Shown piece after piece: positions 1-29,900 of a DNA stretch of 35,065 nt. A program made the position numbers and the translations under genes. The stretch comes from a virus. Lineage: Duplodnaviria; Caudoviricetes. Where the stretch lies: IMG/VR virus record IMGVR_UViG_3300016665_000978, positions 1 through 35,065 of that record, one strand, 5' to 3'. Numbering within the stretch: position 1 is the first letter of the stretch; every line of letters starts with the position of its first letter. The notes beneath the pieces were generated by a model. That model saw nothing but the letters and a program-made list of their open reading frames with translations, ran no database searches and had not been told where the DNA came from.

Positions 1-798
1 CTACCATCTTGCGTTCTCCAGAAATCCTGCATCTTCCAATTCCTTTTGGCAATCAAACATCGCACGTTTGCCTTTTCCAGCATAGCGGTTGAAAATAGTT
101 TCAACTGTGCTCGGTAGTTTGGGAAAGAATTCAACTTTCTGTGCCAACAAACAACGCAGCAGTGGTAATGTGGGGCTGTAGGAGAGATATAAGGTTCCGT
201 GTACGGCTGGCAAACCTTCGAGTGAGGTGAGTTTGTTGTCGAAGCACCAGAAATGTCCAGCAACACTCTTGGGAGCATGTTCCAATGTAGTGAGATTGTT
301 GAAACTGCAATCGAAACTATCATTGACACTTTGGGGACAGTGTTCCAGTGAGGTGAGTTCATTTTTTCTGCAATTGAAATCACCACCAACACTCTGGGGC
401 GCATGTTTAAGGGAGGTAAGCTGGTTGTTGCTGCAATTAAAACTACCGGCAACACTCTGGGGTGCATGTTTAAGGGAGGTAAGTTTGTTGTGGCTACAAT
501 CAAAACGACCATCAACACTCTTGGGTGCATGTTCTAGTGAGGTGAGTTGATTGTCGTAGCAAGAGAAATCATCACCAACACTGTTGGGTGCTCCTGCAAG
601 GGTTTCCAGTTTGTTATGCCCGCCCCAGAAACCACCATCAACCCTGTCAAAAAACACTGGCAATCTCTTGTGCTTGTACCTTTCTTTTAGCGTTACATTG
701 CCCTTACAATTTACAAATCCGCGATCGTCAATGGTTATTTCCCCAGTTGTTTTGAAATACTTGTTCAATAACCGCAATATCTCTTGTTTGTCTACCAT
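1..798 (-). CDS. Leucine-rich-repeat-like phage protein (22-aa repeats)
   Basis: About 6 tandem 22-aa units of the type N-x-L-T-S-L-E-H-A-P-x-S-V-x-G-x-F-x-C. Likely start is ATG 798 (MVDKQ), overlapping the upstream stop. C-terminus FDCQKELEDAG..NARW is shared with the neighbour. Confidence 0.75.
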   Translation of the reverse strand: MVDKQEILRLLNKYFKTTGEITIDDRGFVNCKGNVTLKERYKHKRLPVFFDRVDGGFWGGHNKLETLAGAPNSVGDDFSCYDNQLTSLEHAPKSVDGRFDCSHNKLTSLKHAPQSVAGSFNCSNNQLTSLKHAPQSVGGDFNCRKNELTSLEHCPQSVNDSFDCSFNNLTTLEHAPKSVAGHFWCFDNKLTSLEGLPAVHGTLYLSYSPTLPLLRCLLAQKVEFFPKLPSTVETIFNRYAGKGKRAMFDCQKELEDAGFLENARW

Positions 799-1361
799 CT
801 TGCATGAGCCTCCAACCCAGCATCTTCCAACGCCTTTTGACAATCAAACAGGGCACGGCGTCCTTGCCCAATATAACTGTTCAATATGGTTTGTGCTTTC
901 CACAAATTCTTATCTTCTTCTGGGTCCACCTGAGTAGGCCCGAAAAAATGCACCCCCTCTTTGGCACTCAAAGCCCTCAACAAAGGCAAATCTGGTTTGT
1001 AGCGAATCATAAGTTTCTCGCCAATCTGGGAAGCCAATCCTTCCAATGAGGTTAAATTTTGATTGTGCAGTATGTAGTAAACGCCCTCTACAATTTGAGG
1101 ACCACCAACCAAATTGGAGCCAAGAAAAACACCCAAGCTAAAATGGCCCTTGACTTCTCTTGGACAGCCTTCCAAAGAAATCAACTTACCCAATTCCAGT
1201 TGCATATTGCCCTTCACTGAGTGAAACGCATAGGGCAATGTTTGCGCCATTCTCCGCAGTCTCACGTCTCCGGCTACACTGATTTTGCCAGAAACAGGAT
1301 CCTGGGACACAGGGCCAGACGCATGGAACCACTTTTCGAAATCTTCAATGGGCGCCTGCAT
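792..1361 (-). CDS. Paralog of the LRR-like protein with fewer repeats
   Basis: LISLEGCPREVKGHF and LTSLEGL repeats; C-terminus LPLLRAL...LFDCQKALEDAGLEAHARW matches 1..798. Confidence 0.7.
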   Translation of the reverse strand: MQAPIEDFEKWFHASGPVSQDPVSGKISVAGDVRLRRMAQTLPYAFHSVKGNMQLELGKLISLEGCPREVKGHFSLGVFLGSNLVGGPQIVEGVYYILHNQNLTSLEGLASQIGEKLMIRYKPDLPLLRALSAKEGVHFFGPTQVDPEEDKNLWKAQTILNSYIGQGRRALFDCQKALEDAGLEAHARW

Positions 1362-1681
1362 TACTTGCCCAGCTCACCAAGTGTGTCTAGATCCACAAAT
1401 GTTTTTTGTGTACCAAGGGTCACAATGCAAGTGAGGCTTTGGCTCTCACCTGGAACACTGTGGGTGTTGGTGACCATTATTTGTTTCTGGGGATTGATCC
1501 ACACTGACACCAAGATGGCTTGAAGTTGGCTCACAATAACAGGCTGATAACTTTCTTTCTTGAACATTTCAAAAGCTTGATTGGTGGTAGTGCAAAGCTT
1601 CTTGCCATCAACAGGTGTCCAGGCCATTGCAGCACTTGAGAGGCAGAGAAAACTGATGAGAGACAAAATGGGGAGACGCAT
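1361..1681 (-). CDS. Hypothetical exported protein
   Basis: ATG 1681 follows AAGGA and a TAAATA box (1705-1710, minus strand). N-terminus MRLPILSLISFLCLSSAAMA-W looks like a signal peptide. Confidence 0.65.
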   Translation of the reverse strand: MRLPILSLISFLCLSSAAMAWTPVDGKKLCTTTNQAFEMFKKESYQPVIVSQLQAILVSVWINPQKQIMVTNTHSVPGESQSLTCIVTLGTQKTFVDLDTLGELGK

Positions 1682-1777
1682 GAGAAGGTCCTTGAGATTT
1701 TCTCTATTTATCAAAGGCTAGAGACCTTGCGTCTGGGATTCAACAACATTTGGCTTTGGCGCCTTTAAATAGGAATT

Positions 1778-2770
1778 ATGACAATAAGACATTGGATCAA
1801 CATTGTTGAAGCTAAATTTCGGCAACCAGCCGTTATGTTTCATGGCACTACAACAGAATTCTTGCCCACAATACGGAAACAAGGCATTGTTCCCCATCCC
1901 AAGAAAAAAACTTGGCAATCTGACCCAGATCTCATCCAAGGCAGCTACAGCAGAGCCAGTTTGGAAGGCAGTTACTGGACTTCCAATCTCATGACAGCCA
2001 TCAGCAGTGCATCCACCACCCGAAAAAAGTTCGGCGGAAAAAGTTTGATAATTATAGCCCAGATAGCAGAACAAAGTGGTTATGCTGACGAAGACAGTGT
2101 GAACTCTTCCATGAGGTTTGCCTTGGAACAAACCAACAAAAGCATGCATCCAAGCATAAGGAGTGACTTTCTATTGCCCTTGGCCAGCACGCTTTGGCAA
2201 GACCCCCAGGGAGGGGATGCCCAAAAAGCCAAAAAACAGTTTGCGCAAAGTTTGCATCAGGCGCTGGCTAAAGATCCTTCAATGCACCCCTTGGATCAAA
2301 GGTTTACTGACCAACTCTTGAATGCATTGCTGTTGAGAGAAGTTGCCTGGGAAGCACAAAGCAGCCCTTCAAGACTCAGCTCGTGGCTAACAAACATTCC
2401 TGACCCCTTGCCCAGTGTTGAAGAGGCAGATGAGAGGTTGCAACAGTTGCGCGAAAGATTGACCAGAACCTATCGTAAAACAGCCACTGACAAAAGTCAG
2501 TTCAATCAAACATTGCGTTTGACGCAACCTGTGGGATTCAAAGGCGCAAACAAAATATTGGCAATGCTGGAAGAACAACCGTGGGAATGGCTGCCTGCGT
2601 CAGGTAGTGATGCCAAAAAACTACATGTTCCGCCTTTTGTGTTGCGATACGGATCTGTTGATAGTATCCCAAACGAGTTTTTCTCACAGTATGAAACCCG
2701 GATAGGCCGCTGGCCTGGCTTGGTGAGCAAGGATGGTCATGAGCTAATGCCCAGTGAGAGAAGAGGGTGA
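1778..2770 (+). CDS. ADP-ribosyltransferase-fold protein (HGT motif), putatively virion-packaged
   Basis: MFHGTT...IRKQGI.P and GSYWTS motifs of the Tpt1/ART-like fold. TAAATA at 1766 and AGGA upstream. Confidence 0.55.
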   Translation: MTIRHWINIVEAKFRQPAVMFHGTTTEFLPTIRKQGIVPHPKKKTWQSDPDLIQGSYSRASLEGSYWTSNLMTAISSASTTRKKFGGKSLIIIAQIAEQSGYADEDSVNSSMRFALEQTNKSMHPSIRSDFLLPLASTLWQDPQGGDAQKAKKQFAQSLHQALAKDPSMHPLDQRFTDQLLNALLLREVAWEAQSSPSRLSSWLTNIPDPLPSVEEADERLQQLRERLTRTYRKTATDKSQFNQTLRLTQPVGFKGANKILAMLEEQPWEWLPASGSDAKKLHVPPFVLRYGSVDSIPNEFFSQYETRIGRWPGLVSKDGHELMPSERRG

Positions 2771-2788
2771 AAACCAGCGGTTCTGTGG

Positions 2789-2817
2789 TTGACGGCTGGA
2801 CTTTTTCAGCGTATAAC
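2789..2817 (+). promoter_or_regulatory. sigma70-like promoter of the tRNA cluster
   Basis: TTGACG-N17-TATAAC about 60 nt upstream of tRNA-Leu. Confidence 0.6.
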
Positions 2818-2879
2818 AATGGTGTTGAAGCGCACTACACGGTGTGCAGCAAACAAAAGGAAACAACATACTACTGGAT

Positions 2880-3027
2880 GCCCTGTTGGTGGAATGGTAG
2901 ACACGACTGACTCACCGCCCGTGACAACTAAGAAATTGGTTGGGTCACAGCTAGTTCGACCCTAGCAGGCGAAACAAAATCAGTTCCCCGTGAGGGGGTG
3001 GGGGTTCAAGTCCCTCACAGGGCACCA
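2880..3027 (+). tRNA. tRNA-Leu(CAA) with a 62-nt insert in the anticodon loop
   Basis: Acceptor GCCCTGT/ACAGGGC, A73, CCA. Leu-type D arm GGTGGAATGGTAGACAC. Anticodon stem ACTGA/TCAGT, long variable arm, T loop TTCAAGT. Removing 2915-2976 restores the loop CTCAAAA (86 nt). Confidence 0.85.
2915..2976 (+). other. tRNA-mimic intron-like insert 1
   Basis: C-CGCC...GGCG-AAACA closing stem; GTGAC/GTCAC stem capped by AACTAA-GAAA-TTGGTT; T arm GCTAG-TTCGACC-CTAGC. Confidence 0.75.
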
Positions 3028-3048
3028 AAGCTTTGTAATTGACTTTGA

Positions 3049-3124
3049 TGGGGAGTAGCTCAATTGGTGGAGCATCCGACTTTGAATCGGAAGGCCGTGG
3101 GATCGTACCCCACCTCCCCTACCA
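3049..3124 (+). tRNA. tRNA-Gln(UUG)
   Basis: 76-nt cloverleaf with anticodon arm TCCGA-CTTTGAA-TCGGA and encoded CCA. U1:U72 mismatch and atypical T loop ATCGTAC. Confidence 0.88.
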
Positions 3125-3134
3125 ACAATACTGT

Positions 3135-3262
3135 GGCCGCATATCCCAATTGGCAGAGGAAGTGGACTTACGGACAAGAGCAGCTGGTGCTCATATCAGT
3201 TCAATCCTGATAGTCCAACAGAAATCCACAAAGTGTGAGTTCGAATCTCACTGCGGCTACCA
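3135..3262 (+). tRNA. tRNA, probably Leu(UAA) with short variable loop, with a 51-nt anticodon-loop insert
   Basis: Acceptor GGCCGCA/TGCGGCT, A73, CCA. Anticodon stem GTGGA/TCCAC, T arm GTGAG-TTCGAAT-CTCAC. Removing 3171-3221 gives CTTAAAA (77 nt); other registers would give UGA or AGA anticodons. Confidence 0.75.
3171..3221 (+). other. tRNA-mimic intron-like insert 2
   Basis: C-GGAC...GTCC-AACAG closing stem; hairpin GAGCA/TGCTC; T arm TATCAG-TTCAATC-CTGATA. Confidence 0.75.
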
Positions 3263-3313
3263 AATCCCTAGCATCTATTTTGTGTTCTTCAAAATGCCAA
3301 CTATACTCTAGGT

Positions 3314-4003
3314 ATGACCTACTTAGACATCCAGAAATATCAAAGCCCCAATCACAAACACCCTTTCAAGAATCTGTTGTTCACTTGGTTCACGGAAATA
3401 CAACACAAGGAAATCCTTCAGCCTGATTATTACTTGAAAATACCAGGCATGAGCGGCAAAAAATACAGATATCTTGTTAACAAACTTGCCAGCAGTTTGG
3501 AGGAAGTTCGCTATCTGGAAATTGGCAGTTGGAAAGGCAGCACGCTTTGCAGTGTGTTACATAATAATCAAGTGCAGGCCACAGCAATTGACAACTGGAG
3601 TCAGTTTGATGGACCCCGTGATGAATTTTTCTCAAATGTTCGCAAAACCCAACAACTGGGTACCAAACTCACAGTGTTGGAACAGGATTTTCGGGCAATT
3701 GACTACACTGGGTTAGGCAAGTTCAACATGTATTTGTTTGATGGTCCACACACTGCACAAGATCAGTATGATGGCCTTATGATGGCTCAACCTGCCCTTG
3801 ACCAAAACTACTTGCTAGTAGTGGATGACTGGAATTGGCCACCAGCACGAGAAGGAACTCAAAGAGCATTGAGTGAGCTGGGTGCAGAAGTCAGTTATAT
3901 CACAATCATGACAACCTCAGATGGTAGCCATCCCAACAATCATAGTGAAAACAGTGACTGGCACAATGGATATTTTCTTGCTGCGGTTTCCAAGAAGGCT
4001 TGA
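3314..4003 (+). CDS. Class I SAM-dependent methyltransferase (Methyltransf_24-like)
   Basis: YLEIGSWKGS motif I, IDNW, FDGPH and VVDD motifs. Confidence 0.75.
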   Translation: MTYLDIQKYQSPNHKHPFKNLLFTWFTEIQHKEILQPDYYLKIPGMSGKKYRYLVNKLASSLEEVRYLEIGSWKGSTLCSVLHNNQVQATAIDNWSQFDGPRDEFFSNVRKTQQLGTKLTVLEQDFRAIDYTGLGKFNMYLFDGPHTAQDQYDGLMMAQPALDQNYLLVVDDWNWPPAREGTQRALSELGAEVSYITIMTTSDGSHPNNHSENSDWHNGYFLAAVSKKA

Positions 4004-4028
4004 CACTGTTGATATGATAGTGTAATAT
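4000..4028 (+). promoter_or_regulatory. sigma70-like promoter of tRNA-Gly
   Basis: TTGACA-N17-TAATAT; the -35 box overlaps the upstream TGA stop. Confidence 0.55.
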
Positions 4029-4098
4029 TGGATTGTAGGCGGCGTAAGTGGCTTACAGAAGAAGCGGGCAGACAGGTGAAGTCAGCTGCGTTTTATAT

Positions 4099-4173
4099 GC
4101 GGGATTGGTGTAACCGATAGCATAGAAGATTTCCAATCTTTTGGTAGGAGTTTGAGCCTCCTATTCCGCTCCA
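4099..4173 (+). tRNA. tRNA-Gly(UCC)
   Basis: Acceptor GCGGGAT/ATTCCGC, U73, CCA; anticodon arm GAAGA-TTTCCAA-TCTTT. Confidence 0.88.
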
Positions 4174-4176
4174 TTT

Positions 4177-5040
4177 TCAACCTTGTTTTCTTTGTGGGAC
4201 ATGTGATATATGTCCCCGGAAGTAAGCGTGCCTCACAGCCCCTCTCCACAAGCTATGTTTAGCTTCAATCTCACTACTAGATAATCCTGCATCAATATCA
4301 GCCTGCAAGAATCGATAGTCTTTACGTTGTCGCCTGCCGTCATCCCAAACTTTCCTAACAGATTCAGATACCTTCTTTTTTGTCTCCTCAGAAACAACAG
4401 CTGGCTTATGAAGTCTTGCCTTGGCAGCTTGCTGTCTTCTTTGTTCGGTTATTTCAGTGCTGTGCGTTTTTCCCCGTTGGCTTTCGGATATTTTTTTCTT
4501 AGTTTCTTCACTTCTTGGTTTACCTTGCAGCCGTAATTTAGTTGCCGCGCCGATACGCTGTCGGCCCTCATCTGATAACGTACGTTTACGACCAGGATGA
4601 GATCTGCCGCGCAGTTTTGCGGAAATCTTTTGTTTCGCCTCCTCGGAGTGTTTTTTCCCGCGGAACTTGTTATCTTCTCTGTCATCAGAATTGACATGGT
4701 ACCATCCACCATTACCACCTAAGGTGAGATTATAGGTATCAACCCTGGCAATGAACTCTTCGGTGACCACTTGTGCTTCGGCCTTGTTCAATTCTTCAAA
4801 GGATGTGTATTCTTGTAGGATGGTTCTACAAAAGTTTTCTATTCCATATCGGCTAATCGCTTTTTTAAGTAGTTTACCACTACCTAGATAGCCATCATTT
4901 AAATTTTTGGTAACGTGTTTTCCTACATAGATCTTTTGATTGACCAAATTGGTTGTTTGGTATAAGATATAATAGGTTTTATCTTCAATTTGTGGAGTTA
5001 TTGACTCTTCAAAAAAAGTCGTGTAAATGTCATCAGACAT
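4177..5040 (-). mobile_element. Free-standing GIY-YIG homing endonuclease with NUMOD3-like repeats (Seg-like)
   Basis: ILYQTTNLVNQKIYVGKH...YLGSG, YNL..GG, and repeated GKKHSEEAKQKIS / SEETKKKIS. Lies antisense between two tRNA genes. Confidence 0.85.
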
Positions 5041-5108
5041 GTTTTGTTCTTTCCTAACAAAATGTGTTTAGAGACCAATGGATGTTCCACCATCCTTGGT
5101 CTCGCATA

Positions 5109-5116
5109 TATTTATA
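5109..5116 (-). promoter_or_regulatory. T4-type late promoter TATAAATA of the endonuclease gene
   Basis: Exact T4 late consensus about 70 nt upstream of the ATG, followed by a hairpin at 5071-5103. Confidence 0.6.
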
Positions 5117-5118
5117 GT

Positions 5119-5146
5119 TTGACGTTGCTGTAAATATCTATATAAT
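5119..5146 (+). promoter_or_regulatory. sigma70-like promoter of tRNA-Arg
   Basis: TTGACG-N16-TATAAT. Confidence 0.6.
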
Positions 5147-5165
5147 TAGCACATAAATTGAATTA

Positions 5166-5290
5166 CTCCCGATAGCTCAACCGGATAGAGCATCAGACTT
5201 CCGGTCCCATAGGTAGATACACAAGGTTCAATTCCTTGGGGACCGTCCCTAATCTGAAGGTTGACCGTTCGAGTCGGTCTCGGGAGGCCA
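5166..5290 (+). tRNA. tRNA-Arg(UCU) with a 48-nt insert in the anticodon loop
   Basis: Acceptor CTCCCGA/TCGGGAG, G73, CCA. D loop with GGA (A20, Arg identity). Stem TCAGA/TCTGA, T arm GACCG-TTCGAGT-CGGTC. Removing 5202-5249 gives CTTCTAA (77 nt). Confidence 0.85.
5202..5249 (+). other. tRNA-mimic intron-like insert 3
   Basis: 7-bp stem CGGTCCC/GGGACCG, 5-bp T arm CAAGG-TTCAATT-CCTTG and 4-nt tail TCCC, which is exact tRNA minihelix geometry. Confidence 0.8.
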
Positions 5291-5314
5291 ACTATTTCCC
5301 CACTAAATATGCTC

Positions 5315-5758
5315 ATGAGAATCCAGGATTTGGCACCAGTTTATTATCATGGTAGCTACACTTATCTTGCACCGGGAACAATTCTCTCTCCGAGAAATCA
5401 ACACTATGAACAAGACTGGCAACATACAGATTTCTACAATGTGTTGGAAAAATACAGACCCGCCAACAAACCAGCGCACAAAGACAGTGTGTTCATGGTT
5501 TCTGATCCTGATGATATTGATTTGGCAGGCGGAGGAACAGATTGGATCTTCACTCTACAACCTCTAGGCCCAGTCTCCAAGCACGACCTCAATTGGAGCA
5601 GTGAAATTAGCATGCTAAAAAGTGACGGCTTCGATAATGAGTCGCCCGAAGTGCAACAAGCCGCAAAAAATTATTGGATGGGTGTGCCACACCACAATGA
5701 AAGTGTGTGGGAATATCTTACACCCCGGGCCAAGATTTTGACTGTTGAAGAGTATTAA
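5315..5758 (+). CDS. Arr-like ADP-ribosyltransferase-fold protein
   Basis: VYYHGS...LAPG..L.P N-terminus and late EY. TAAATA at 5304; start placed at MRIQDL because the longer ORF overlaps the tRNA. Confidence 0.45.
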   Translation: MRIQDLAPVYYHGSYTYLAPGTILSPRNQHYEQDWQHTDFYNVLEKYRPANKPAHKDSVFMVSDPDDIDLAGGGTDWIFTLQPLGPVSKHDLNWSSEISMLKSDGFDNESPEVQQAAKNYWMGVPHHNESVWEYLTPRAKILTVEEY

Positions 5759-5805
5759 CTTTAAATTATACTAAAAAACAAACCTTACCAAAAGAACCCA
5801 ACCCA

Positions 5806-6597
5806 ATGCAATCACTCACCCCCCATCAAACCCAACGCATACAACACTTGTGGAACCAGGCTGAGGGCATCGTGATTCTTGCTGGAGCCGGCATGAGTGT
5901 GGACAGTGGCTTGCCTGATTTCCGGGGATCTACTGGAATGTGGACAGAAGCCAAGGAATCTTTTGTTGCCAAGGCCACCGCCAAAGGTTTTCTCACCAAT
6001 CCACTTGAGGCCTGGAACTTTTATATTGAACGAATGATCCAGTATCAAAACCATCAACCACATGAAGGTTACCAGATTCTCCTGGATGTTTTGAAAAAAC
6101 ACAACAAAAGCTATTTTGTGGTCACAAGCAATGTTGATGGACATTTTCTCAAGGCTGGATATGATCCACACAACATATATGAAATACATGGCAGCCTTCG
6201 GCACACCCAATGCACACAGCCTTGTTGCAGAAACTTAACGCCAATGCCCAAATTTATTTCACTATTGCTATCAGATAGTGAAATTCCACAGTGTCCTTAC
6301 TGCAAGAAAAATGCACGACCCAATGTGCTGATGTTCAGTGATCCCAATATTGTGTGGACGCAGATTGATCAAGGACAACAAAGTTTCAAGGATTGGGCTG
6401 CACCAAAATTGGCTATTTTGGGTATTGAAATTGGAGCAGGCACTGGCATTCCCAGCATACGATTGTTTGGTGAGGAACGCACTTGTGATCTCATCCGTAT
6501 CAATCCCCACGAACATGAAACCACTAGAGCAGGTGATGTGGGGTTGGCTATGACTGCCCTCGAAGGGATTCAACAATTGGCTCTGGCTGTAGGATAA
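5806..6597 (+). CDS. Sir2-family NAD-dependent deacylase
   Basis: GAGMSVDSGLPDFRG, TSNVDG, EIHGS, zinc-ribbon cysteines, RPNVLMF. Confidence 0.9.
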   Translation: MQSLTPHQTQRIQHLWNQAEGIVILAGAGMSVDSGLPDFRGSTGMWTEAKESFVAKATAKGFLTNPLEAWNFYIERMIQYQNHQPHEGYQILLDVLKKHNKSYFVVTSNVDGHFLKAGYDPHNIYEIHGSLRHTQCTQPCCRNLTPMPKFISLLLSDSEIPQCPYCKKNARPNVLMFSDPNIVWTQIDQGQQSFKDWAAPKLAILGIEIGAGTGIPSIRLFGEERTCDLIRINPHEHETTRAGDVGLAMTALEGIQQLALAVG

Positions 6598-6655
6598 AGC
6601 TTTGTAAGCTCCTGGATATAAATAAATAACTCAACAAGCTTACAAGGAAATTTCC

Positions 6656-6901
6656 ATGAGTGATGACATCAAAAAATATAGAGCAATTGTAGAGGGTTCT
6701 CATGCTCAAGCACGTAAAAAATCCAGCCTAACAGAGGGCACACAGCCAGCAGCTAAAATGCTGTTGGAAAGCATGGCTGGCAAAAAAATAACCACCAATC
6801 AACTTTTTGAGGCAATGATTAACCATCCTCAAATCCGTGGTGGTGATGCTGCTCTCCGTGTGCTGAAGGAAATGAAAGCTCAACTAAAAAAGAAAGTTTA
6901 A
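6656..6901 (+). CDS. Hypothetical late protein
   Basis: TATAAATA at 6617 and AAGGA SD; N-terminus IKKYRAIVEG. Confidence 0.65.
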   Translation: MSDDIKKYRAIVEGSHAQARKKSSLTEGTQPAAKMLLESMAGKKITTNQLFEAMINHPQIRGGDAALRVLKEMKAQLKKKV

Positions 6902-6929
6902 AAACTCTTGATTGGCTGAAAAACTTGTG

Positions 6930-6960
6930 CCCTGACTTACTCTGTTAAGTCAGGGTTCTC
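6930..6960 (+). terminator. Stem-loop, possible terminator
   Basis: CCCTGACTTA-ctctgt-TAAGTCAGGG followed by a pyrimidine run. Confidence 0.5.
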
Positions 6961-6995
6961 CTTCTGTTAAATAAGCAGTTGAGAGGACACCAAAG

Positions 6996-7943
6996 ATGAG
7001 AGTGGATCAAGTATTAGCACAAGAAAATCAAAACCTGAGTGAGGCTCTAGGCAAGTGGGGCACCCTAGGTGCATTGGGCTTGAGTGCAGCACTTGGAGCC
7101 TACAGTGGTTCAGCGCAAGGCAGTGCACTGGCTAGGAGTTTGTTGGGCAAGAGTGCACCTGGCCAAACCACTGTTGCTAGTCCGGCACCGCCCACACAGC
7201 CTGTTCCTCAAATCCCGGCAGATGCAGAAACTGCCAAAAAAACCTCTTTGCCTGTGCCCCCTATTCCCCCAAAAGAGGTACCTAAAGTCAAACCCAGCAG
7301 TCCTGAAACACATCCTAACTTTCCTGCTTCACTACAAGCACAATTGGATGCACTCCCCAAGGACAAAATCAACAGTTTTGTAAGAACTTTTTTGCCATCT
7401 ATACAGGACATAAATCAAGAAATATTGCGTGATAGAGCAATTTTGAAATCGGTTATGAACCGCCAAAATCTCTCACCTGCACAGCAAAATTGGCTGGAAA
7501 AGAAGTTGGAATCTTATAGAGCAAGCACAGTTCATGAACTGTGGCAAAAAATGGACATTGTTCCTCCCAGTTTGGTTTTGAGTCAAGCTGGCTTGGAAAG
7601 TGGTTGGGGCACATCAGACATTGCTCGCCAATTCAATGCATTTTTTGGCCAAAAAACTTGGGGCGACAAAAATGCTGTATTAGCTCCGGGCGGGGAACGG
7701 TATCAAACTTTTGACAATCCTCGAGAAAGCATACGCAGTTATATGCAAAATTTGAACAGTCATCCGGCTTATCAAGGCTTGCGGCAAACTAGGGCACAAT
7801 TGCGCAAAGCCAACAAACCAGTCACTGGTGATGTTTTGGCTACTGGTTTGGAAAAATACAGCACAAAAGGCAAAGATTATGTGCGTCAAGTTCAAAGCAT
7901 GATCCGTGCCAGAAAATGGACAGATTTGGATAAAAATCACTAG
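6996..7943 (+). CDS. GH73 glucosaminidase / Bax-like peptidoglycan hydrolase with Pro-rich linker
   Basis: PPSLVLSQAGLESGWGTS, NAFFG, Y..NLNSHPAY, YST. TAAATA upstream. Confidence 0.85.
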   Translation: MRVDQVLAQENQNLSEALGKWGTLGALGLSAALGAYSGSAQGSALARSLLGKSAPGQTTVASPAPPTQPVPQIPADAETAKKTSLPVPPIPPKEVPKVKPSSPETHPNFPASLQAQLDALPKDKINSFVRTFLPSIQDINQEILRDRAILKSVMNRQNLSPAQQNWLEKKLESYRASTVHELWQKMDIVPPSLVLSQAGLESGWGTSDIARQFNAFFGQKTWGDKNAVLAPGGERYQTFDNPRESIRSYMQNLNSHPAYQGLRQTRAQLRKANKPVTGDVLATGLEKYSTKGKDYVRQVQSMIRARKWTDLDKNH

Positions 7944-7978
7944 TTGTCTATACTCCAAAGAAAAATTGGAGAAAAAGG

Positions 7979-9361
7979 TTGAGCTACAAAGGTAAAATTG
8001 TCTTATTGGGATTCGGCAGCATTGGCAGTGGACTGCTGCCATTGTTACTCAAACATTTTCCAGCAGAGAAAATCCTAATACTTGGTGGCGACAATCGAAA
8101 TGTAAATGTTGCAGCCAAATATGGTGTGGCACATGTTATCGAACCCATTGTTCCCAGCAATTTGAATGCAGTTCTCACACGCTACTTGCAACCTGGCGAC
8201 TTTTTGGTAAACCTCAGTGTAAATGTCAGTACCCGTGAGTTGGTGAGCTGGTGCAGAACACGTGATGTGTTGTATCTGGACACTTGCATTGAGCCGTGGG
8301 AGGGATTCTACACCGACACCTCTGTGGCTCCAGAACGACGTAGCAATTACGCTCTCCGGCAGGAGATGTTGGACCTCAGAGCAGCTTGGCAGCAAGGAAG
8401 CGAACCAGGGCCAACCGCTTTGTTGGCACATGGAGCCAATCCTGGTTTGGTAAACCATTTTGTGAAGCGTGCACTGATGAACATTGCCCGCGATCAACGC
8501 CTCCAGTTTGTGGAACCCATCACACGAGAGGAGTGGATCACATTAGCCCAAACAGTGGGATTGCGTGTGATCCACATTGCTGAACGCGATACCCAAACTC
8601 CCCGAGTGCCAAAAAAGCGAGACGAGTTTGTAAACACTTGGAGTGTAGATGGATTTGTCAGTGAAGGGTTGCAGCCCAGTGAGTTGGGATGGGGCACACA
8701 TGAACGGGAATTGCCAAAGGATGCACACCGCTACAGTTGGGGATGCCAAAGCAGCATTTGGTTGGAACAACCAGGATGTGTCACACAAGTGAGGAGTTGG
8801 ACACCACTTGAAGGAGCTTATCGTGGATGGCTAGTGACTCACAATGAAAGCATCAGCATCTCAGACTATTTCAGCAACAGTGAATATCGTCCCACAGTGC
8901 ACTATGCCTATCACCCCTGTGACTCAGCAGTGCTGAGCATGCACGAGATGAGCGGCAAGAATTTTCAACAACAAACAGCACAACGCTTGATTGTAGATGA
9001 GGTGGAAAGTGGTGTTGACGAGTTGGGCGTGCTCCTAATGGGCAATTTTGGTGCCTATTGGTACGGCAGTCAACTCAGCATTGAAGAGGCCCGACTGTTG
9101 TGTCCACACAACAATGCCACCAGTTTGCAAGTGGTGGCTCCTGTTTTGGCTGGCATTCTGTGGTGCATTGAGCATTCTCAGAGAGGAGTAGTTGAGGCCG
9201 ATGAGCTGCCACATGAGGAAATCATGAAGATAACTGACCCCTATATGGGCAAGCTGTTGGGACAATACACCACATGGACTCCATTGCAGGATCGCGGCGT
9301 GTTGTTTCCTGAAAGTGTTGACCTTTCCGATCCTTGGCAGTTCAAAAACTTTAGAGTTTGA
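7979..9361 (+). CDS. hss: Homospermidine synthase
   Basis: GFGSIG, YLDTCIEPW, HGANPGLV, HIAERDTQ, FVNTWSVDGF, HNESISI, RPTVHYAYHPC, NATSLQV. TTG start. Confidence 0.93.
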   Translation: MSYKGKIVLLGFGSIGSGLLPLLLKHFPAEKILILGGDNRNVNVAAKYGVAHVIEPIVPSNLNAVLTRYLQPGDFLVNLSVNVSTRELVSWCRTRDVLYLDTCIEPWEGFYTDTSVAPERRSNYALRQEMLDLRAAWQQGSEPGPTALLAHGANPGLVNHFVKRALMNIARDQRLQFVEPITREEWITLAQTVGLRVIHIAERDTQTPRVPKKRDEFVNTWSVDGFVSEGLQPSELGWGTHERELPKDAHRYSWGCQSSIWLEQPGCVTQVRSWTPLEGAYRGWLVTHNESISISDYFSNSEYRPTVHYAYHPCDSAVLSMHEMSGKNFQQQTAQRLIVDEVESGVDELGVLLMGNFGAYWYGSQLSIEEARLLCPHNNATSLQVVAPVLAGILWCIEHSQRGVVEADELPHEEIMKITDPYMGKLLGQYTTWTPLQDRGVLFPESVDLSDPWQFKNFRV

Positions 9362-9391
9362 CATAGCAAAAGCCACTGTTAATGTAGGGGC

Positions 9392-9997
9392 ATGATTCAC
9401 TTGCTCTCAAAACTTCCCCGAGATTTGACAGTGGCCTGCTCTGGCGGCCTTGACAGCATGGCTGTGGTGGATTTTTTGCGGCGTGCTCACAATATCCGTT
9501 TGGCATTTTTTAACCATGGCACAGACGCCAGCAATGAGGCACATCAATTTTTGGCACAATGGGCTTGGGAAAACAACCTGGAACTGGTGGTGGATTTTTT
9601 GGTTGAAGCGAAACCTCAAAACAAAAGCCCTGAAGAGCATTGGCGAGACTCTCGCTACGCTTTCTTGCATCAGTTGAGTGGGGTAGTGGTTACTGCACAT
9701 CATCTTGATGACTGTGTGGAAACATATCTCTTCAACTGCCTACATGGGAAAAGCTATACTATTCCCTTGAACCGAAACAATGTGACCCGACCTTTTCTCA
9801 CCACGCCCAAAAAAGTGTTTGTTGATTGGTGCCAGAGACATGAGGTGCCATGGATCGAAGACTCAAGTAATCAAGATCTCAGCTACATGCGAAATCACAT
9901 TCGGCACAAGATTGTTCCAGAGGCATTGCGGGTAAATCCAGGATTGCCCAAGGTGGTGAAGAAAATTGTGTTGGGTCAGCTACAACAGGTAGATTGA
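9392..9997 (+). CDS. tilS: tRNA(Ile)-lysidine synthetase (minimal catalytic domain)
   Basis: PP-loop SGGLDS, RY, TAHHLDD..ET, RP, DSSN, RN.IRH. Immediately followed by a CAU tRNA. Confidence 0.9.
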   Translation: MIHLLSKLPRDLTVACSGGLDSMAVVDFLRRAHNIRLAFFNHGTDASNEAHQFLAQWAWENNLELVVDFLVEAKPQNKSPEEHWRDSRYAFLHQLSGVVVTAHHLDDCVETYLFNCLHGKSYTIPLNRNNVTRPFLTTPKKVFVDWCQRHEVPWIEDSSNQDLSYMRNHIRHKIVPEALRVNPGLPKVVKKIVLGQLQQVD

Positions 9998-10024
9998 CAC
10001 AAAATCAAAAGTTAAGTATATATT
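9994..10024 (+). promoter_or_regulatory. sigma70-like promoter of the CAU tRNA
   Basis: TTGACA-N17-TATATA(TT), overlapping the tilS stop. Confidence 0.5.
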
Positions 10025-10033
10025 GACTATGCG

Positions 10034-10121
10034 CCACGCATGAGCCGAATCGGTGAAGGCAGCGGTCTCATAAACCGTCGGGGAAACCCAATTGTAGGTT
10101 CAAGTCCTACTGCGTGGACCA
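10034..10121 (+). tRNA. tRNA(CAU), probably Ile2, with long variable arm
   Basis: Acceptor CCACGCA/TGCGTGG, A73, CCA. GCGGT-CTCATAA-ACCGT; variable hairpin GGG-GAAA-CCC; T arm GTAGG-TTCAAGT-CCTAC; 88 nt. Confidence 0.85.
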
Positions 10122-10189
10122 AATTTATTCTCGCACAATAAATTTGTTGTCAGCATTGACAATCTCCTCCAATTTCCGCAGCATAATGG

Positions 10190-10780
10190 ATGCAGCCACT
10201 ATTCTCTCTTGAGGTTTGTGACATACTCACAGCCCGTCAGCTTATACAAGCCAGCATTCCTACCAAAATCATCTCCTTGCTGAGTCCAGAACAAGCAACA
10301 GAGTTTGAGTTCACATCACAAGGAACAGATCACAAACTGTGGTTGATGGATGATGTGACATTTTCTGCTCCTGGCTCTCGTGCACCATCAGTCTCCCAAA
10401 TTCTGGAAATTTTAGACTTCAGCAAAACCTTCCAACCAAATGACAAGGCGCTGATCCACTGCTACGCCGGAGTCAGCCGAAGCACGTCCGTTGCCATTGG
10501 TGTGCTATGTCAACATGGCGTGCCCCCCTCGGACAGCATCTCTGTGGTGGAAAAACTCTGTGAGGGTATGGATCCAAATGAGTTGATCTTGAGGCATTTT
10601 GATGCAGCGTTAGGACTCAAACTCACACTCCTAGACGCTTACAAATGTTGGGCACAAACACAAAATGGTCGACTAATGAACACTGTTCCCAAACACAGTG
10701 GTGCAGAGTTGGAACGTAATGCTAGAGAGTATTATTCACAAATGAGTTTGCGAGTGCCTATCCATAATATGGATCAGTAA
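10190..10780 (+). CDS. Cys-dependent (CX5R) protein-tyrosine/dual-specificity phosphatase-like protein
   Basis: LIHCYAGVSRST, upstream DD and downstream PN. Confidence 0.8.
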   Translation: MQPLFSLEVCDILTARQLIQASIPTKIISLLSPEQATEFEFTSQGTDHKLWLMDDVTFSAPGSRAPSVSQILEILDFSKTFQPNDKALIHCYAGVSRSTSVAIGVLCQHGVPPSDSISVVEKLCEGMDPNELILRHFDAALGLKLTLLDAYKCWAQTQNGRLMNTVPKHSGAELERNAREYYSQMSLRVPIHNMDQ

Positions 10781-11336
10781 TGACCCATGTGCTGCCTCTG
10801 CGCATGATATTAGCTGGATGCAAGTCTAATCTGAGGCGTTTTTTTCTTATCTGTGCCACCATCAAATTTACTGCTTTTTCTGCATCAGCGCTCAAATTCT
10901 GGCATTCAACTGCACTCATGTTTGTTTTGATATAATGCGGCGGGCTTATGCGTAATTTAAGGCACAGCTCTTGGATGGCACAAAAGCATTCTGGCATTTC
11001 AACCAGTATATCATACTCTGTTATCTTGGCCAATTTTTCCATTCGAACGTAGCTGAAACGTGTACCTGGAATCTGTTTCATCACCTTACTGAACTTTGGA
11101 AAGTGGGGATTTGGATTTTGCTGAACTAGTTCAACAAATGTTGTGTATTGACTTTTAGTGGGCCAAATTTTCAACACGTATCCTTTTTCAGGATGTTCAG
11201 CAACAGCAGCTTCGCTACCTCGACCCAGCAACTTCCAGCCATGTGCATACACCACGTCTTGTAATTGGCTTCCAATCATGTTGTTGCCACGTATGTTTTT
11301 CAATCGCCGGGTAATCTCAAGTTCACTCAAATTCAT
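10758..11336 (-). CDS. Protein-kinase-fold enzyme
   Basis: LGRGSEAAV, VLKI, MEKL, DLHPANIM, ITDP. TAAATA at 11341-11346 directly before MNLSELE. Confidence 0.75.
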   Translation of the reverse strand: MNLSELEITRRLKNIRGNNMIGSQLQDVVYAHGWKLLGRGSEAAVAEHPEKGYVLKIWPTKSQYTTFVELVQQNPNPHFPKFSKVMKQIPGTRFSYVRMEKLAKITEYDILVEMPECFCAIQELCLKLRISPPHYIKTNMSAVECQNLSADAEKAVNLMVAQIRKKRLRLDLHPANIMRRGSTWVITDPYYG

Positions 11337-11403
11337 GCTGTATTTAAGCATAGGCTCTACAAGTTTTGCCCTTAAATAAACACAGCGGTTATAGAGGTGC
11401 CAT

Positions 11404-11847
11404 ATGATTTACACTATTACATCTTTGAGTGACAGTTTATGTGAGTTGGTGCGCCAAGATCCAGTAAGACCGCACATTCCATTGGAGAGCAGAATTGGAG
11501 ACAACAGTAACATCTGGGTTTGGCTAAACGAGCAAGATGAACCAGGAGCAGTAGTTTGTGTCAGCTGGCAAGATTTTGTTCCCACTAGTGAACAGGAGCT
11601 GTTTCAGTGCAAAAGCACAACACCATCTGTGGCGGTGTTTTACACCATATGGAGCATGAGTCCAGGTGCCGGGCAACGCTTGATCATCGAGGCTCAAAAA
11701 CATTTGAAAAGCCAGTATCCGCATATTCAGCGTGCAGTTACCTTAAGCCCTCCAACAGCTATGGCTCGCAAGTTCCATCTCAGAAATGGAGCATTCGAAT
11801 TACAAACAAATCCCACAACTGTGAATTTTGAATACAGTTTGGCTTGA
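11404..11847 (+). CDS. Hypothetical protein, possibly GNAT-like
   Basis: FYTIWS..PGAGQRLI and ARKFHLRNG resemble GNAT motifs A and B. GAGG SD. Confidence 0.5.
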   Translation: MIYTITSLSDSLCELVRQDPVRPHIPLESRIGDNSNIWVWLNEQDEPGAVVCVSWQDFVPTSEQELFQCKSTTPSVAVFYTIWSMSPGAGQRLIIEAQKHLKSQYPHIQRAVTLSPPTAMARKFHLRNGAFELQTNPTTVNFEYSLA

Positions 11848-11872
11848 CAGTTAATCTCCTGGCTCATATATT
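11844..11872 (+). promoter_or_regulatory. sigma70-like promoter of the CUA tRNA
   Basis: TTGACA-N17-TATATT ending 9 nt before the tRNA. Confidence 0.6.
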
Positions 11873-11881
11873 TGGTGTGTT

Positions 11882-11957
11882 GGTTCCATAAGACAACGGT
11901 TAGTCAGCTGGATTCTAAACCCATGCGGTGTGAGTTCAAATCTCACTGGGACCACCA
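11882..11957 (+). tRNA. tRNA with CUA anticodon (putative amber suppressor)
   Basis: 76 nt. Acceptor GGTTCCA/TGGGACC, A73, CCA; loop TT-CTA-AA; T arm GTGAG-TTCAAAT-CTCAC. The anticodon stem has two mismatches. Confidence 0.75.
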
Positions 11958-12024
11958 AACAGTTAGAGGATTTGAGAACAGCAACATGACATAGGTTGCA
12001 AACACATTAGGCTTTGATTCACCC

Positions 12025-28962: not shown

Positions 28963-29900
28963 CCTTCACTGGCAATTTGGCTGAGTTCAATAAGTGCTGC
29001 ACTAAAATTGATCTCAGGATCAGCACACATTGCATGATCGCGTAGACGATTAGCAATGATAACAATAGCAGCATTTTGTTGCCTGTCAGTCGAACCCCAC
29101 CAATTGAGATTTTGATACAGCAACCGATAAGCCTCCTCAAACTCAGCACCTTGTAGCTTGGGTGCCAGCAGCTTCCGGGCTTCGAGAATTTTCCCCTCCC
29201 GGAACAGCCCAACAGCTTGCACAACATAGTCACTAGTAGCACTGGCTGTACCTTCACCTGGCCGTGTAAGTGTTTGATTGATACAATTTTGTTGCAGCAT
29301 GTTGATACACTTGCGAAGATCAGGATAGCACGCACTTACATAATCATCCAGAATCTCAAAATTATGTTCTGTAAGATCAATGCCTTCACTCATGAGAACC
29401 GTTGCAATGCGCTCCACAAACTGATCGCGTTCAAGGCTTTGGATTTCAAATGTTTGGCACCTGCTTTTCAGCGCAGGAATGATTTTGTGCCCATAATTGG
29501 CAGTGAGAATAAATCGTGCCCCGTCACTGTAGGTTTCAACCATGTTACGTAAGCCGCTTTGAGCGGCTGCGGTTAGCCCGTCAGCCTCGTCAATAATCAC
29601 ATAACGAAACTCACCCATAGGCATTGTTGATACAAAGTTTTCCAGATCGCGAACAAAGTCAATACCGTTAGTCGTACTGCCGTTCACAAACTTGATATCT
29701 GAATTATCTACATTCAGTTCCTGCATCATCATCATGGCAAGGGCTGTTTTGCCAATACCTGGATGCCCAATTAGGAGCAAGTTGGGCAGATGCTTTTCCG
29801 CTACCCAAGATTCAACTTGAGCTTTTTGTGCACTATTGCTCCAAACATAGTCTTGGAGACTGCTTGGTCGATATTTTTGAACCCAAAGCTTCTTGCTCAT
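28959..29900 (-). CDS. Sliding-clamp loader AAA+ subunit (RFC small / T4 gp44-like)
   Basis: LWVQKYRP, Walker A GHPGIGKT, IIDEAD, FILTAN, SRC, DLRKCIN. Confidence 0.92.
   Translation of the reverse strand: MSKKLWVQKYRPSSLQDYVWSNSAQKAQVESWVAEKHLPNLLLIGHPGIGKTALAMMMMQELNVDNSDIKFVNGSTTNGIDFVRDLENFVSTMPMGEFRYVIIDEADGLTAAAQSGLRNMVETYSDGARFILTANYGHKIIPALKSRCQTFEIQSLERDQFVERIATVLMSEGIDLTEHNFEILDDYVSACYPDLRKCINMLQQNCINQTLTRPGEGTASATSDYVVQAVGLFREGKILEARKLLAPKLQGAEFEEAYRLLYQNLNWWGSTDRQQNAAIVIIANRLRDHAMCADPEINFSAALIELSQIASEG

Follow-up and report, generated by a model that had tools for sequence, protein, structure and literature searches.

What becomes of a tRNA gene whose anticodon is interrupted by a sequence that itself resembles a tRNA? 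The question arises from the viral record IMGVR_UViG_3300016665_000978, whose entire 35,065 bases we analysed (the window), and in which two tRNA-Leu genes and one tRNA-Arg gene carry short inserts in their anticodon loops. We conclude that these inserts are very probably introns removed at the RNA level. Comparison among phages supports this reading well, because the same loci occur as empty alleles, the insert ends track tRNA ends across splice registers and the insert stems show compensatory pairs. The comparison also indicates that tRNA-mimic inserts are a real and widespread class, those of the window being a leaderless variant of a kind of intron that is in print but was never defined.

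Three tRNA genes split by tRNA-like inserts

ARAGORN run with intron handling calls the three genes at 2880-3027, 3135-3262 and 5166-5290 with inserts of 62, 51 and 48 nt, which bears out the intact arms, encoded CCA ends and insert lengths described in an earlier note on this DNA, and the Rfam tRNA model spans the insert in 2880-3027 and 3135-3262. The spliced sequences that the note had suggested running through the same program pass: with the inserts removed at junction 35/36, ARAGORN accepts the first as Leu(CAA) at threshold 118, the second as Leu(UAA) at 114 and the third as Arg(UCU) at 120. A loop-masked comparison with 1,544 intact tRNAs finds the anticodons CAA, UAA and UCU in their nearest counterparts. 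ARAGORN also reports a false Leu at 5198-5290. Each gene is split inside the anticodon by an insert whose predicted fold resembles a tRNA's acceptor and T arms.

Insert 1 begins with a C facing an A at the position of pair 1:72 and continues with a 4-bp closing stem, a long hairpin, a T-arm with a 7-nt TTCGACC loop and the tail AACA. Insert 2 has the same C facing A and a 4-bp closing stem, followed by a 5-bp hairpin, a 6-bp T-arm with a TTCAATC loop and the tail ACAG; in both, 11 nt separate the T-loop from position 72. Insert 3 combines a 7-bp closing stem, a 12-nt middle, a 5-bp T-arm with a TTCAATT loop and the tail TCCC, with 12 nt from the T-loop to position 72 (the full 7+5 stack). Because the first C faces A, the free 3' end of inserts 1 and 2 comprises five bases (the mismatched base of 1:72, then four), and the 4-nt overhang previously ascribed to every insert needs correcting for these two.

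Folding z-scores against shuffled sequences are -2.7, -2.7 and -3.6 for inserts 1, 2 and 3. The proposed T-arm belongs to the minimum-energy fold of inserts 1 and 2; that of insert 3 does not contain the T-arm, which appears there as an alternative fold and is part of the best fold in the L280 homologue. Among 1,000 shuffles of each insert, 14, 16 and 23 passed a closing-stem-plus-hairpin rule, and none of the 3,000 passed the closing-stem rule together with a TTCRA loop. The junction at 35/36 had been presented as the only one fitting all three genes. This stands for insert 2, where 35/36 is the sole possible register; the same spliced product arises if the junction slides by up to two bases to the left in insert 1 or by one base in insert 3.

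Relatives and the junction rule

The window comes from a jumbo T4-like phage. We base this assignment on synteny with the relative G001 (310 kb, 76% complete, about 72-82% nucleotide identity across most of the window) and on protein matches at 45-50% to Pseudomonas phage PA5oct and Agrobacterium phage Atu_ph07. Close relatives carry empty alleles at the same loci, namely intact Leu(CAA) and Leu(UAA) genes in L280, an intact Leu(CAA) in L316 and an intact Arg(UCU) in L136, with the anticodons CAA, UAA and UCU; the empty Leu(UAA) allele of L280 fixes the junction of insert 2 at 35/36.

The orthologue of insert 1 in L301 is identical at 56/62 positions, and insert 2 is identical at 43-49 of 51 positions in five relatives, four of which have a different Leu body. 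In L316, insert 2 (49/51 identical) lies inside a Leu body of the long-arm class matching only 20/32 and 24/50 positions, and in L280, insert 3 (38/48 identical) lies inside a different Arg body matching 15/32 and 21/38. In these alignments the inserts are more conserved than the surrounding tRNA bodies, so inserts and bodies are exchanged separately. Among seven homologues of insert 2, a small alignment with one distant row, 93.5% of cells are paired and three intron pairs, in the closing stem and the T-stem, show compensatory change, in agreement with the earlier proposal that pairing is kept while sequence varies. As a separate observation, whole Leu(UAA) bodies (short-arm versus long-arm) are swapped between close strains when 3135-3262 is compared with L316 and L136, and the flanks of the swapped body are about 97% identical in L316.

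Viral contigs were searched in five pattern scans, metagenomes and prokaryotic genomes in one scan each, and the candidates were screened with a script that removes the insert and scores the spliced tRNA product. At an ARAGORN threshold of 110, this gave 94 host-plus-insert genes, corresponding to 88 distinct interrupted loops. Leaderless tRNA mimics in large phages account for 60 of the 88, including one that is probably spurious (L421). The other 28 fail the leaderless rule and comprise leader-bearing loci of the type described for Lak megaphages, plain hairpins (L307/L331), array chimeras and near-misses (L133, L322, L477). The 60 inserts sit in Leu, Ile, Arg, Gln, Thr, Pro, Lys, Asn and Glu genes and one doubtful His gene, with 29 in Leu(UAA) alone, and the interrupted gene is often the sole gene for its anticodon. 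The carriers are gut, rumen, freshwater, saltern and plant-bacterium jumbo phages. Insert lengths form a series from whole-tRNA size to about 43 nt, and eight inserts of 71-77 nt approach a whole tRNA.

A single rule places both junctions: the intron runs from the mimic's +1 to four bases past its pair 1:72, or to one base past it in a discriminator-only subgroup. Applied to the 48 inserts with a clear isotype vote (the 12 with a vote under 4/5 were left out), the rule restores the anticodon of the host body in 48/48, a strong concordance to which we attach no p-value; shifted by -1 or +1, it gives a matching anticodon in 24/48 or 10/48. It is also right in all 20 cases that allow a unique register (13 at 34/35, 7 at 35/36). 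Across the 60, the junction falls at 35/36 (n=31), 34/35 (n=25), 36/37 (n=3) and, in one doubtful case, 37/38, so that the fixed 35/36 site suggested for the window does not extend to the family. On this comparative evidence, the intron's own tRNA geometry, not the position in the host, defines the cuts.

Further tRNA-like traits recur. CCA ends 38 of 56 four-base tails, and three inserts have clear discriminator ends; the distance from the T-loop to position 72 is 12 nt in 48/58 and 11 nt in 8/58; and C56 with purines at 57 and 58 of the T-loop is found in all three window inserts and in 56/60 family-wide. A subgroup of 9/60, to which inserts 1 and 2 belong, has a mismatched 1:72 and an A-rich tail, mostly with an 11-nt stack. 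The C start once thought obligatory proved variable: the first base is G in 30/60 and C in 28/60, the latter count being inflated since two scan patterns demanded C, and 80 of 638 ordinary phage tRNAs have C at +1. As orthologues of inserts 1 and 2 in L301 and L136 begin with G, the first base is part of the intron and cannot be a fixed signal.

The scans differed widely in yield. The first was mostly chance, as 5 of 121 matches gave a tRNA after removal, four of them with the build described here; in a two-T-arm scan only 26 of 128 loci contained a host gene with an insert, so that its estimate of about 1,600 stretches is not a family size. In insert-blind scans based on the exons only, the inserts of good spliced hosts passed the rule in 13/15, 4/7 and 21/25, against 56 of 2,400 shuffled inserts. 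No insert was found in 185,579 prokaryotic genomes scanned with a Leu pattern limited to AGAC-type D arms, the six matches being ordinary tRNAs with chance upstream matches, and blastn of four host-plus-insert queries and the 2860-3280 stretch found no insert in 50,697 phage records.

Other arrangements were seen along the way. The metagenome loci L307, L331 and L311 hold a Leu(UAA) gene with a 52-nt insert of two adjacent hairpins lacking a closing stem or T-loop, perhaps another insert type. In G001, a Thr(UGU)-type gene (L477:9260-9422; G001 29060-29222) has an 87-nt insert that fails the leaderless rule, with a short stem, two hairpins and a 5-bp hairpin with an unusual 7-nt loop; it yields Thr at 34/35 or 33/34. 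Many viral contigs show a whole tRNA followed directly by the 3' part of another, which are likely array assembly chimeras or deletion scars.

The tRNA regions of ten isolated protein-level relatives, with 277 intact tRNA calls in 30 stretches, were also scanned, and two of the ten, Atu_ph07 and Salicola phage SCTP-2, carry the tRNA-mimic build in a tRNA-Asn gene (Table 1). Both inserts leave a single 5' base unpaired and combine a 6-bp stem with a TTC T-arm; their stack measures 12 nt and their tail is A-rich. Splicing at 35/36 yields the anticodon GUU, and for both genes the closest intact body is an Asn tRNA, with a mixed isotype vote for the Atu_ph07 gene. A pattern search found no intact Asn loop in either genome, and the GenBank records have no tRNA features in the stretches examined. 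Asn and Thr were the only amino acids for which Atu_ph07 was reported to lack a tRNA (PMC6102473); judged from its sequence, the interrupted gene fills the Asn gap. A Thr(UGU)-like gene of the same phage has a plain hairpin without a T-arm as its insert, and its anticodon stem and T stem each contain a mismatch; the isotype of this gene is less certain, and it is possibly a different insert type or a decaying gene.

Candidate splicing route and rival explanations

Bacterial RNase P measures the stack of acceptor and T stems, its determinants being T-loop bases, a 12-bp stack, G at +1 and a 3' RCCA, the last two of which help without being strict needs. Hydrolytic cuts by RNase P, E or Z leave a 3'-OH and a 5'-phosphate, the ends that ATP-dependent ligases join. 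The acceptor/T stack is likewise read by human RNase P (PMC10424219); RNase E matures E. coli Pro tRNAs in one step directly after CCA, needing C at +1, whatever follows (PMC8860583); and for some RNase Zs the cut falls behind CCA or, on substrates that lack CCA, behind the discriminator (PMC7479834).

We slightly favour a route in which host RNase P would make the 5' cut, an endonuclease the 3' cut and an ATP-dependent RNA ligase the joint. RNase P would bind the mimic's T-loop and acceptor/T stack and cut before +1, leaving a 3'-OH on the 5' half. In the second and weakest step, an endonuclease, of which RNase E and an RNase Z/BN-type enzyme are candidates, would cut four bases past 1:72, after CCA where present and after the discriminator in the small subgroup, leaving a 5'-phosphate on the 3' half. 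A phage ligase of Rnl1 or Rnl2 type would then seal the two halves, which the stems of the interrupted tRNA keep together. The inserts may have originated as mature tRNAs ligated into anticodon-loop breaks, copied back to DNA and shrunk to the part read by nucleases, an origin suggested because their ends equal mature tRNA ends, near-whole tRNAs occur and the sites span 34/35-36/37; later spread between tRNA bodies would proceed by recombination at the conserved anticodon arm. The earlier note had likewise proposed tRNA-processing nucleases and a ligase. Its RNA-level removal is backed by the comparative evidence above; its enzymes, like ours, are inferred.

EndA, RNase Z, HARP and RNase P RNA were found in none of the five carriers tested, which points to host nucleases. 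G001 encodes Rnl1, an Rnl2-type ligase, a kinase-phosphoesterase, RlaP and Thg1, and both cultured carriers encode Rnl1- and Rnl2-type ligases; four of 13 complete carriers have no clear ligase. Enrichment of Rnl1 by Pfam (9/25 carriers, 4/21 comparison records) was not convincing, and the absence of RtcB from 25 carriers says little about RtcB as the ligase, as it occurs in only 1/21 comparison records. A Thg1-like guanylyltransferase, also named in the Atu_ph07 paper (PMC6102473), is encoded by 14/25 insert carriers versus 3/21 comparison records, with kinship uncontrolled.

Several observations weigh against this route, or against splicing itself. The window inserts have C at +1 and the tails AACA, ACAG and TCCC, and so lack both RNase P helpers, G+1 and RCCA, which lowers, but does not remove, their likeness to RNase P substrates; inserts 1 and 2 add the C-A mismatch at 1:72 and the 11-nt stack, the stack being 12 nt in insert 3 and in both cultured Asn inserts. 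Because the window tails are not CCA, which holds for 18/56 tails overall, the 3' cut must be measured by distance there, and no known host enzyme has been shown to do so; if RNase Z cut behind the discriminator, the loop left would have 10 bases. The window, a 35-kb fragment, has no ligase gene; an Rnl1 or strong Rnl2-type match occurs in 9/13 complete carriers compared with 6/12 complete comparison records, themselves not checked genome-wide for inserts, and the complete carriers G017, G020, G021 and G025 give only weak matches on frames of DNA-ligase size. The data were already in view when the junction rule was drawn up, and some of the 60 inserts are related to one another, so that the counts are not independent events. 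Spliced-junction pieces, which the earlier note had named as a check, did not appear: four RNA runs (X17-X20, contigs only) gave 16 pieces and no spliced joint. One 151-nt piece from an RNA run (3025-3175) reaches five bases into insert 2 and could equally be precursor or DNA; run X15, probably DNA, gave nothing on splicing.

Could the inserts be chimeras assembled from neighbouring tRNA genes? Such artefacts are common: beyond the 26 host-plus-insert genes among the 128 loci of the two-T-arm scan, many loci were a whole tRNA followed by a tRNA 3' piece. For the window, this explanation is refuted by DNA contigs of two other studies that span the inserts with no gaps inside them (X4 record 17, 2601-3335; X4 record 23, 4998-5319; X3 records 10 and 16) and by identical or near-identical insert copies in L338 and L316. 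With homologues keeping their stems while loops vary and the same build in isolate genomes, hardly any chance is left to it. It is quite improbable, too, that the genes yield no working spliced tRNA and serve as decoys, as sources of tRNA halves or mini-tRNAs, or are simply inactivated. This would fit the frequent dispensability of phage tRNA genes, the four complete carriers in which no RNA ligase is recognisable and the absence of a junction read from the RNA-run contigs; yet both exons retain full pairing, identity elements and CCA, 48/48 restored matching anticodons need selection on the joined product, and the inserts are better conserved than the bodies around them.

Two further explanations accept splicing and change its agents. 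A dedicated, unrecognised phage endonuclease might read the mimic's shape and cut one or both sites by distance, with no need for host RNase P or RNase E/Z. The 3' junction is indeed constant in position, not sequence, A-rich non-CCA tails and the 1:72 mismatch occur in the window's lineage and the two cultured phages, and most genes of carrier phages have no family. We nonetheless consider this enzyme unlikely: an all-against-all comparison of nine carriers and the window found no unannotated protein common to G001 and the gut carriers, the shared clusters being only homing endonucleases, PhoH, Thg1, Rnl1, ThyX and band 7, and the CCA kept in 38/56 tails fits enzymes that read tRNA ends more easily. 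Alternatively, RNA itself might lead, the free 3'-OH left by RNase P transesterifying at the 3' junction or the insert acting as a small ribozyme, with no protein ligase. This would account for the ligase-less carriers and the loose 3' tails, and Lak-type members do have an extra 5' hairpin leader. It is very unlikely, given that leaderless inserts have no conserved core beyond the T-loop, their middle ranging from about 11 nt to whole arms, and that no Rfam ribozyme matched window 1-12000 at E up to 1.

Stated in full, the favoured account would give viruses of bacteria a separate way of splicing: an intron with a tRNA shape as its sole signal, cut by the host nucleases that mature tRNA 5' and 3' ends, sealed by a phage ligase, born from mature tRNAs ligated into anticodon-nuclease cuts, mobile between tRNA bodies and widespread in jumbo phages, with the tRNA maturing only once the phage ligase is made. 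As a whole this account is tentative, and some part of it may well have to give way.

Genomic setting, known introns and significance

Table 1. Features of the interrupted tRNA genes, their neighbours in the window and the cultured carriers
Feature	Location	Strand	Basis or remark
tRNA-Leu(CAA) 5' exon, positions 1-35	2880..2914	+	ARAGORN, nearest intact bodies
Insert 1, 62 nt	2915..2976	+	
tRNA-Leu(CAA) 3' exon, long variable arm, encoded CCA	2977..3027	+	ARAGORN
Intact tRNA-Gln(UUG) between both Leu genes	3049..3124	+	Identical in L280
tRNA-Leu(UAA) 5' exon, short-variable-arm body	3135..3170	+	ARAGORN, nearest intact bodies
Insert 2, 51 nt	3171..3221	+	
tRNA-Leu(UAA) 3' exon, encoded CCA	3222..3262	+	ARAGORN
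Intact tRNA-Gly(UCC)	4099..4173	+	
Free-standing GIY-YIG/NUMOD3 homing endonuclease gene	4177..5040	-	Not tied to inserts
Sigma-70-like promoter consensus upstream of Arg gene	5119..5146	+	11/12 positions, consensus match only
tRNA-Arg(UCU) 5' exon	5166..5201	+	ARAGORN, nearest intact bodies
Insert 3, 48 nt	5202..5249	+	
tRNA-Arg(UCU) 3' exon, encoded CCA	5250..5290	+	ARAGORN
Atu_ph07 tRNA-Asn, 46-nt insert at 323943-323988	MF403008.1, about 323904-324023 (L612:6105-6224)	-	
Atu_ph07 Thr(UGU)-like gene, 33-nt insert at 35/36	About 335105-335213 (L612:17306-17414)	-	
SCTP-2 tRNA-Asn, 45-nt insert at 298765-298809	MF360958.1, about 298729-298850 (L623:4730-4851)	+	

The window encodes a T4-like clamp loader, tail fibres, a Swiss-army-knife HAD phosphatase, a GIY-YIG endonuclease and a PP-loop gene, and sequencing runs containing its sequence are mainly freshwater. 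Its commonest Leu and Arg codons, UUG (0.39) and AGA (0.28), are read by the interrupted Leu(CAA) and Arg(UCU). For the phage, the interruption may serve to time tRNA supply or to shield the anticodon from nucleases, both of which the earlier note had offered, or it may bring no gain. The GIY-YIG gene is found in L136 next to the intact Arg and is absent from L316 and L280 despite their Arg insert; homing by this endonuclease was rejected as the carrier of insert 3, since the endonuclease does not track the insert. Sigma-70-like consensus sites number seven, with 4.7 expected.

Other features of the genome stand apart from the inserts. A PP-loop gene (9392-9997; TilS-like, an inferred label) immediately precedes a CAU-anticodon tRNA with a long variable arm (10034-10121), at the place where G001 has a short-arm CAU tRNA. 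A tRNA with a CUA (amber) anticodon at 11882-11957 is conserved in G001; the long frames of the window stop at TAG, TGA and TAA alike. Ahead of the tRNA cluster, a 330-aa frame (1778-2770) has no Pfam or PHROG match; its ESM Atlas features resemble those of DUF4433/DarT-like ADP-ribosyltransferase clusters (0.91-0.92, about 125/256 features shared), a lead only. G001 (L476, L485-L490) also encodes heme oxygenase and bilin reductase, a sigma-70 factor, an ArfB/RF-1-domain gene, an L7/L12 domain, NAD salvage genes and an Acb1 anti-CBASS domain.

Group I introns sit in the anticodon loops of bacterial tRNAs, with a patchy distribution (cyanobacterial Leu(UAA), Azoarcus Ile, Agrobacterium Arg); they are ribozymes of at least 200 nt built on a P3-P9 catalytic core, follow a U at the 5' splice site and end in G. 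The window inserts share the anticodon-loop site, including Leu(UAA), and the patchy presence, but they are 48-62 nt long, and at 35/36 the exons end in A, A and C and the inserts in A, G and C. We therefore rejected a group I intron as too short, with the wrong junction bases and without a match to an Rfam group I model at E up to 1. Archaeal and eukaryal tRNA introns have a bulge-helix-bulge, are cut by EndA/TSEN and are sealed by RtcB or Trl1; they are likewise short, nuclease-excised and ligase-sealed, whereas here a tRNA mimic inside the intron would be the signal. We rejected bulge-helix-bulge and the EndA route: in 15 register/gene combinations no 4-bp helix flanked by helices on both sides could be formed, EndA is found in 0/5 carriers (four archaeal controls were positive) and the hosts of the cultured carriers are bacteria. 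The earlier exclusion of both intron types is thereby upheld.

tRNA-like processing signals are known from tRNA punctuation and from mascRNA/MEN-beta. As in these and the Pro tRNAs matured by RNase E (PMC8860583), a tRNA shape would direct cuts at its own ends inside a longer RNA; the flanks are released there, whereas here they are halves of another tRNA that need in-frame re-joining. T4 Pnk/Rnl1 repair of breaks made by anticodon nucleases and jumbo-phage RNA-repair kits (PMC7824862) have the same joining site and the same ligase and healing families as G001 and the cultured carriers; there the break is made by host defence, and here it would be programmed by the gene.

The nearest relatives of the inserts are the tRNA introns of Lak megaphages, called enigmatic, of which the Thr intron was predicted to encode a tRNA (Devoto et al. 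2019, PMC6784885; preprint 10.1101/356790), and the tRNA introns of 262 alternatively coded jumbo phage genomes in a 2026 survey, which 'could encode another tRNA' (PMC13037316). An intron class hitherto undescribed, as the earlier note had ventured, is thus no longer tenable. Lak introns are anticodon-loop inserts of phage tRNA genes with present and absent alleles (PMC6784885), and four introns in its Table S6 end, by eye, in a stem, a hairpin with a TTCG-type loop and a short tail, much as the window inserts have a closing stem and a 3' T-arm. They differ in length (79-114 nt or longer, versus 48-62 nt) and in a 5' hairpin and A-rich linker before the mini-tRNA (our reading of Table S6, not a published definition). 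The window inserts, unlike them, are leaderless, start at the mimic's +1 and occur in a standard-code freshwater phage. Our scans also recovered leader-bearing Lak-type loci (L360, L417, L435, L457 and L471, with 28-35 nt of unpaired region).

The portions available of PMC6784885 give no splice rule or mechanism, those of PMC13037316 no structure rule or mechanism and recoded phages only, to which we add standard-code and cultured phages; the available parts of PMC7162821, 10.1101/2021.08.26.457843 and PMC8346664 add no splice rule or mechanism either. We found no published splice rule or mechanism in a search that left most subscription papers outside, and the supplementary PDF of PMC6784885 and Figure S2C of PMC13037316 may hold more.

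Phage tRNA introns, enigmatic since 2019, were previously reported only from uncultured phages, and two cultured phages now carry the build. The window displays its minimal, leaderless form, and the comparison supplies an exact rule for both junctions. Annotation is corrected as well, interrupted tRNA genes having been missed or miscalled, as with the false Leu call in the window and the Asn and Thr tRNAs that Atu_ph07 was said to lack. Protein-spliced tRNA introns are thought to be archaeal and eukaryal, and bacterial tRNA introns to be ribozymes; the two cultured phages, whose hosts, Agrobacterium tumefaciens C58 for Atu_ph07 and Salicola sp. PV4 for SCTP-2, are available, make splicing of a different kind directly testable. 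If splicing depends on the ligase, these introns would constitute a natural switch tying tRNA supply to infection, and possibly a programmable splicing module.

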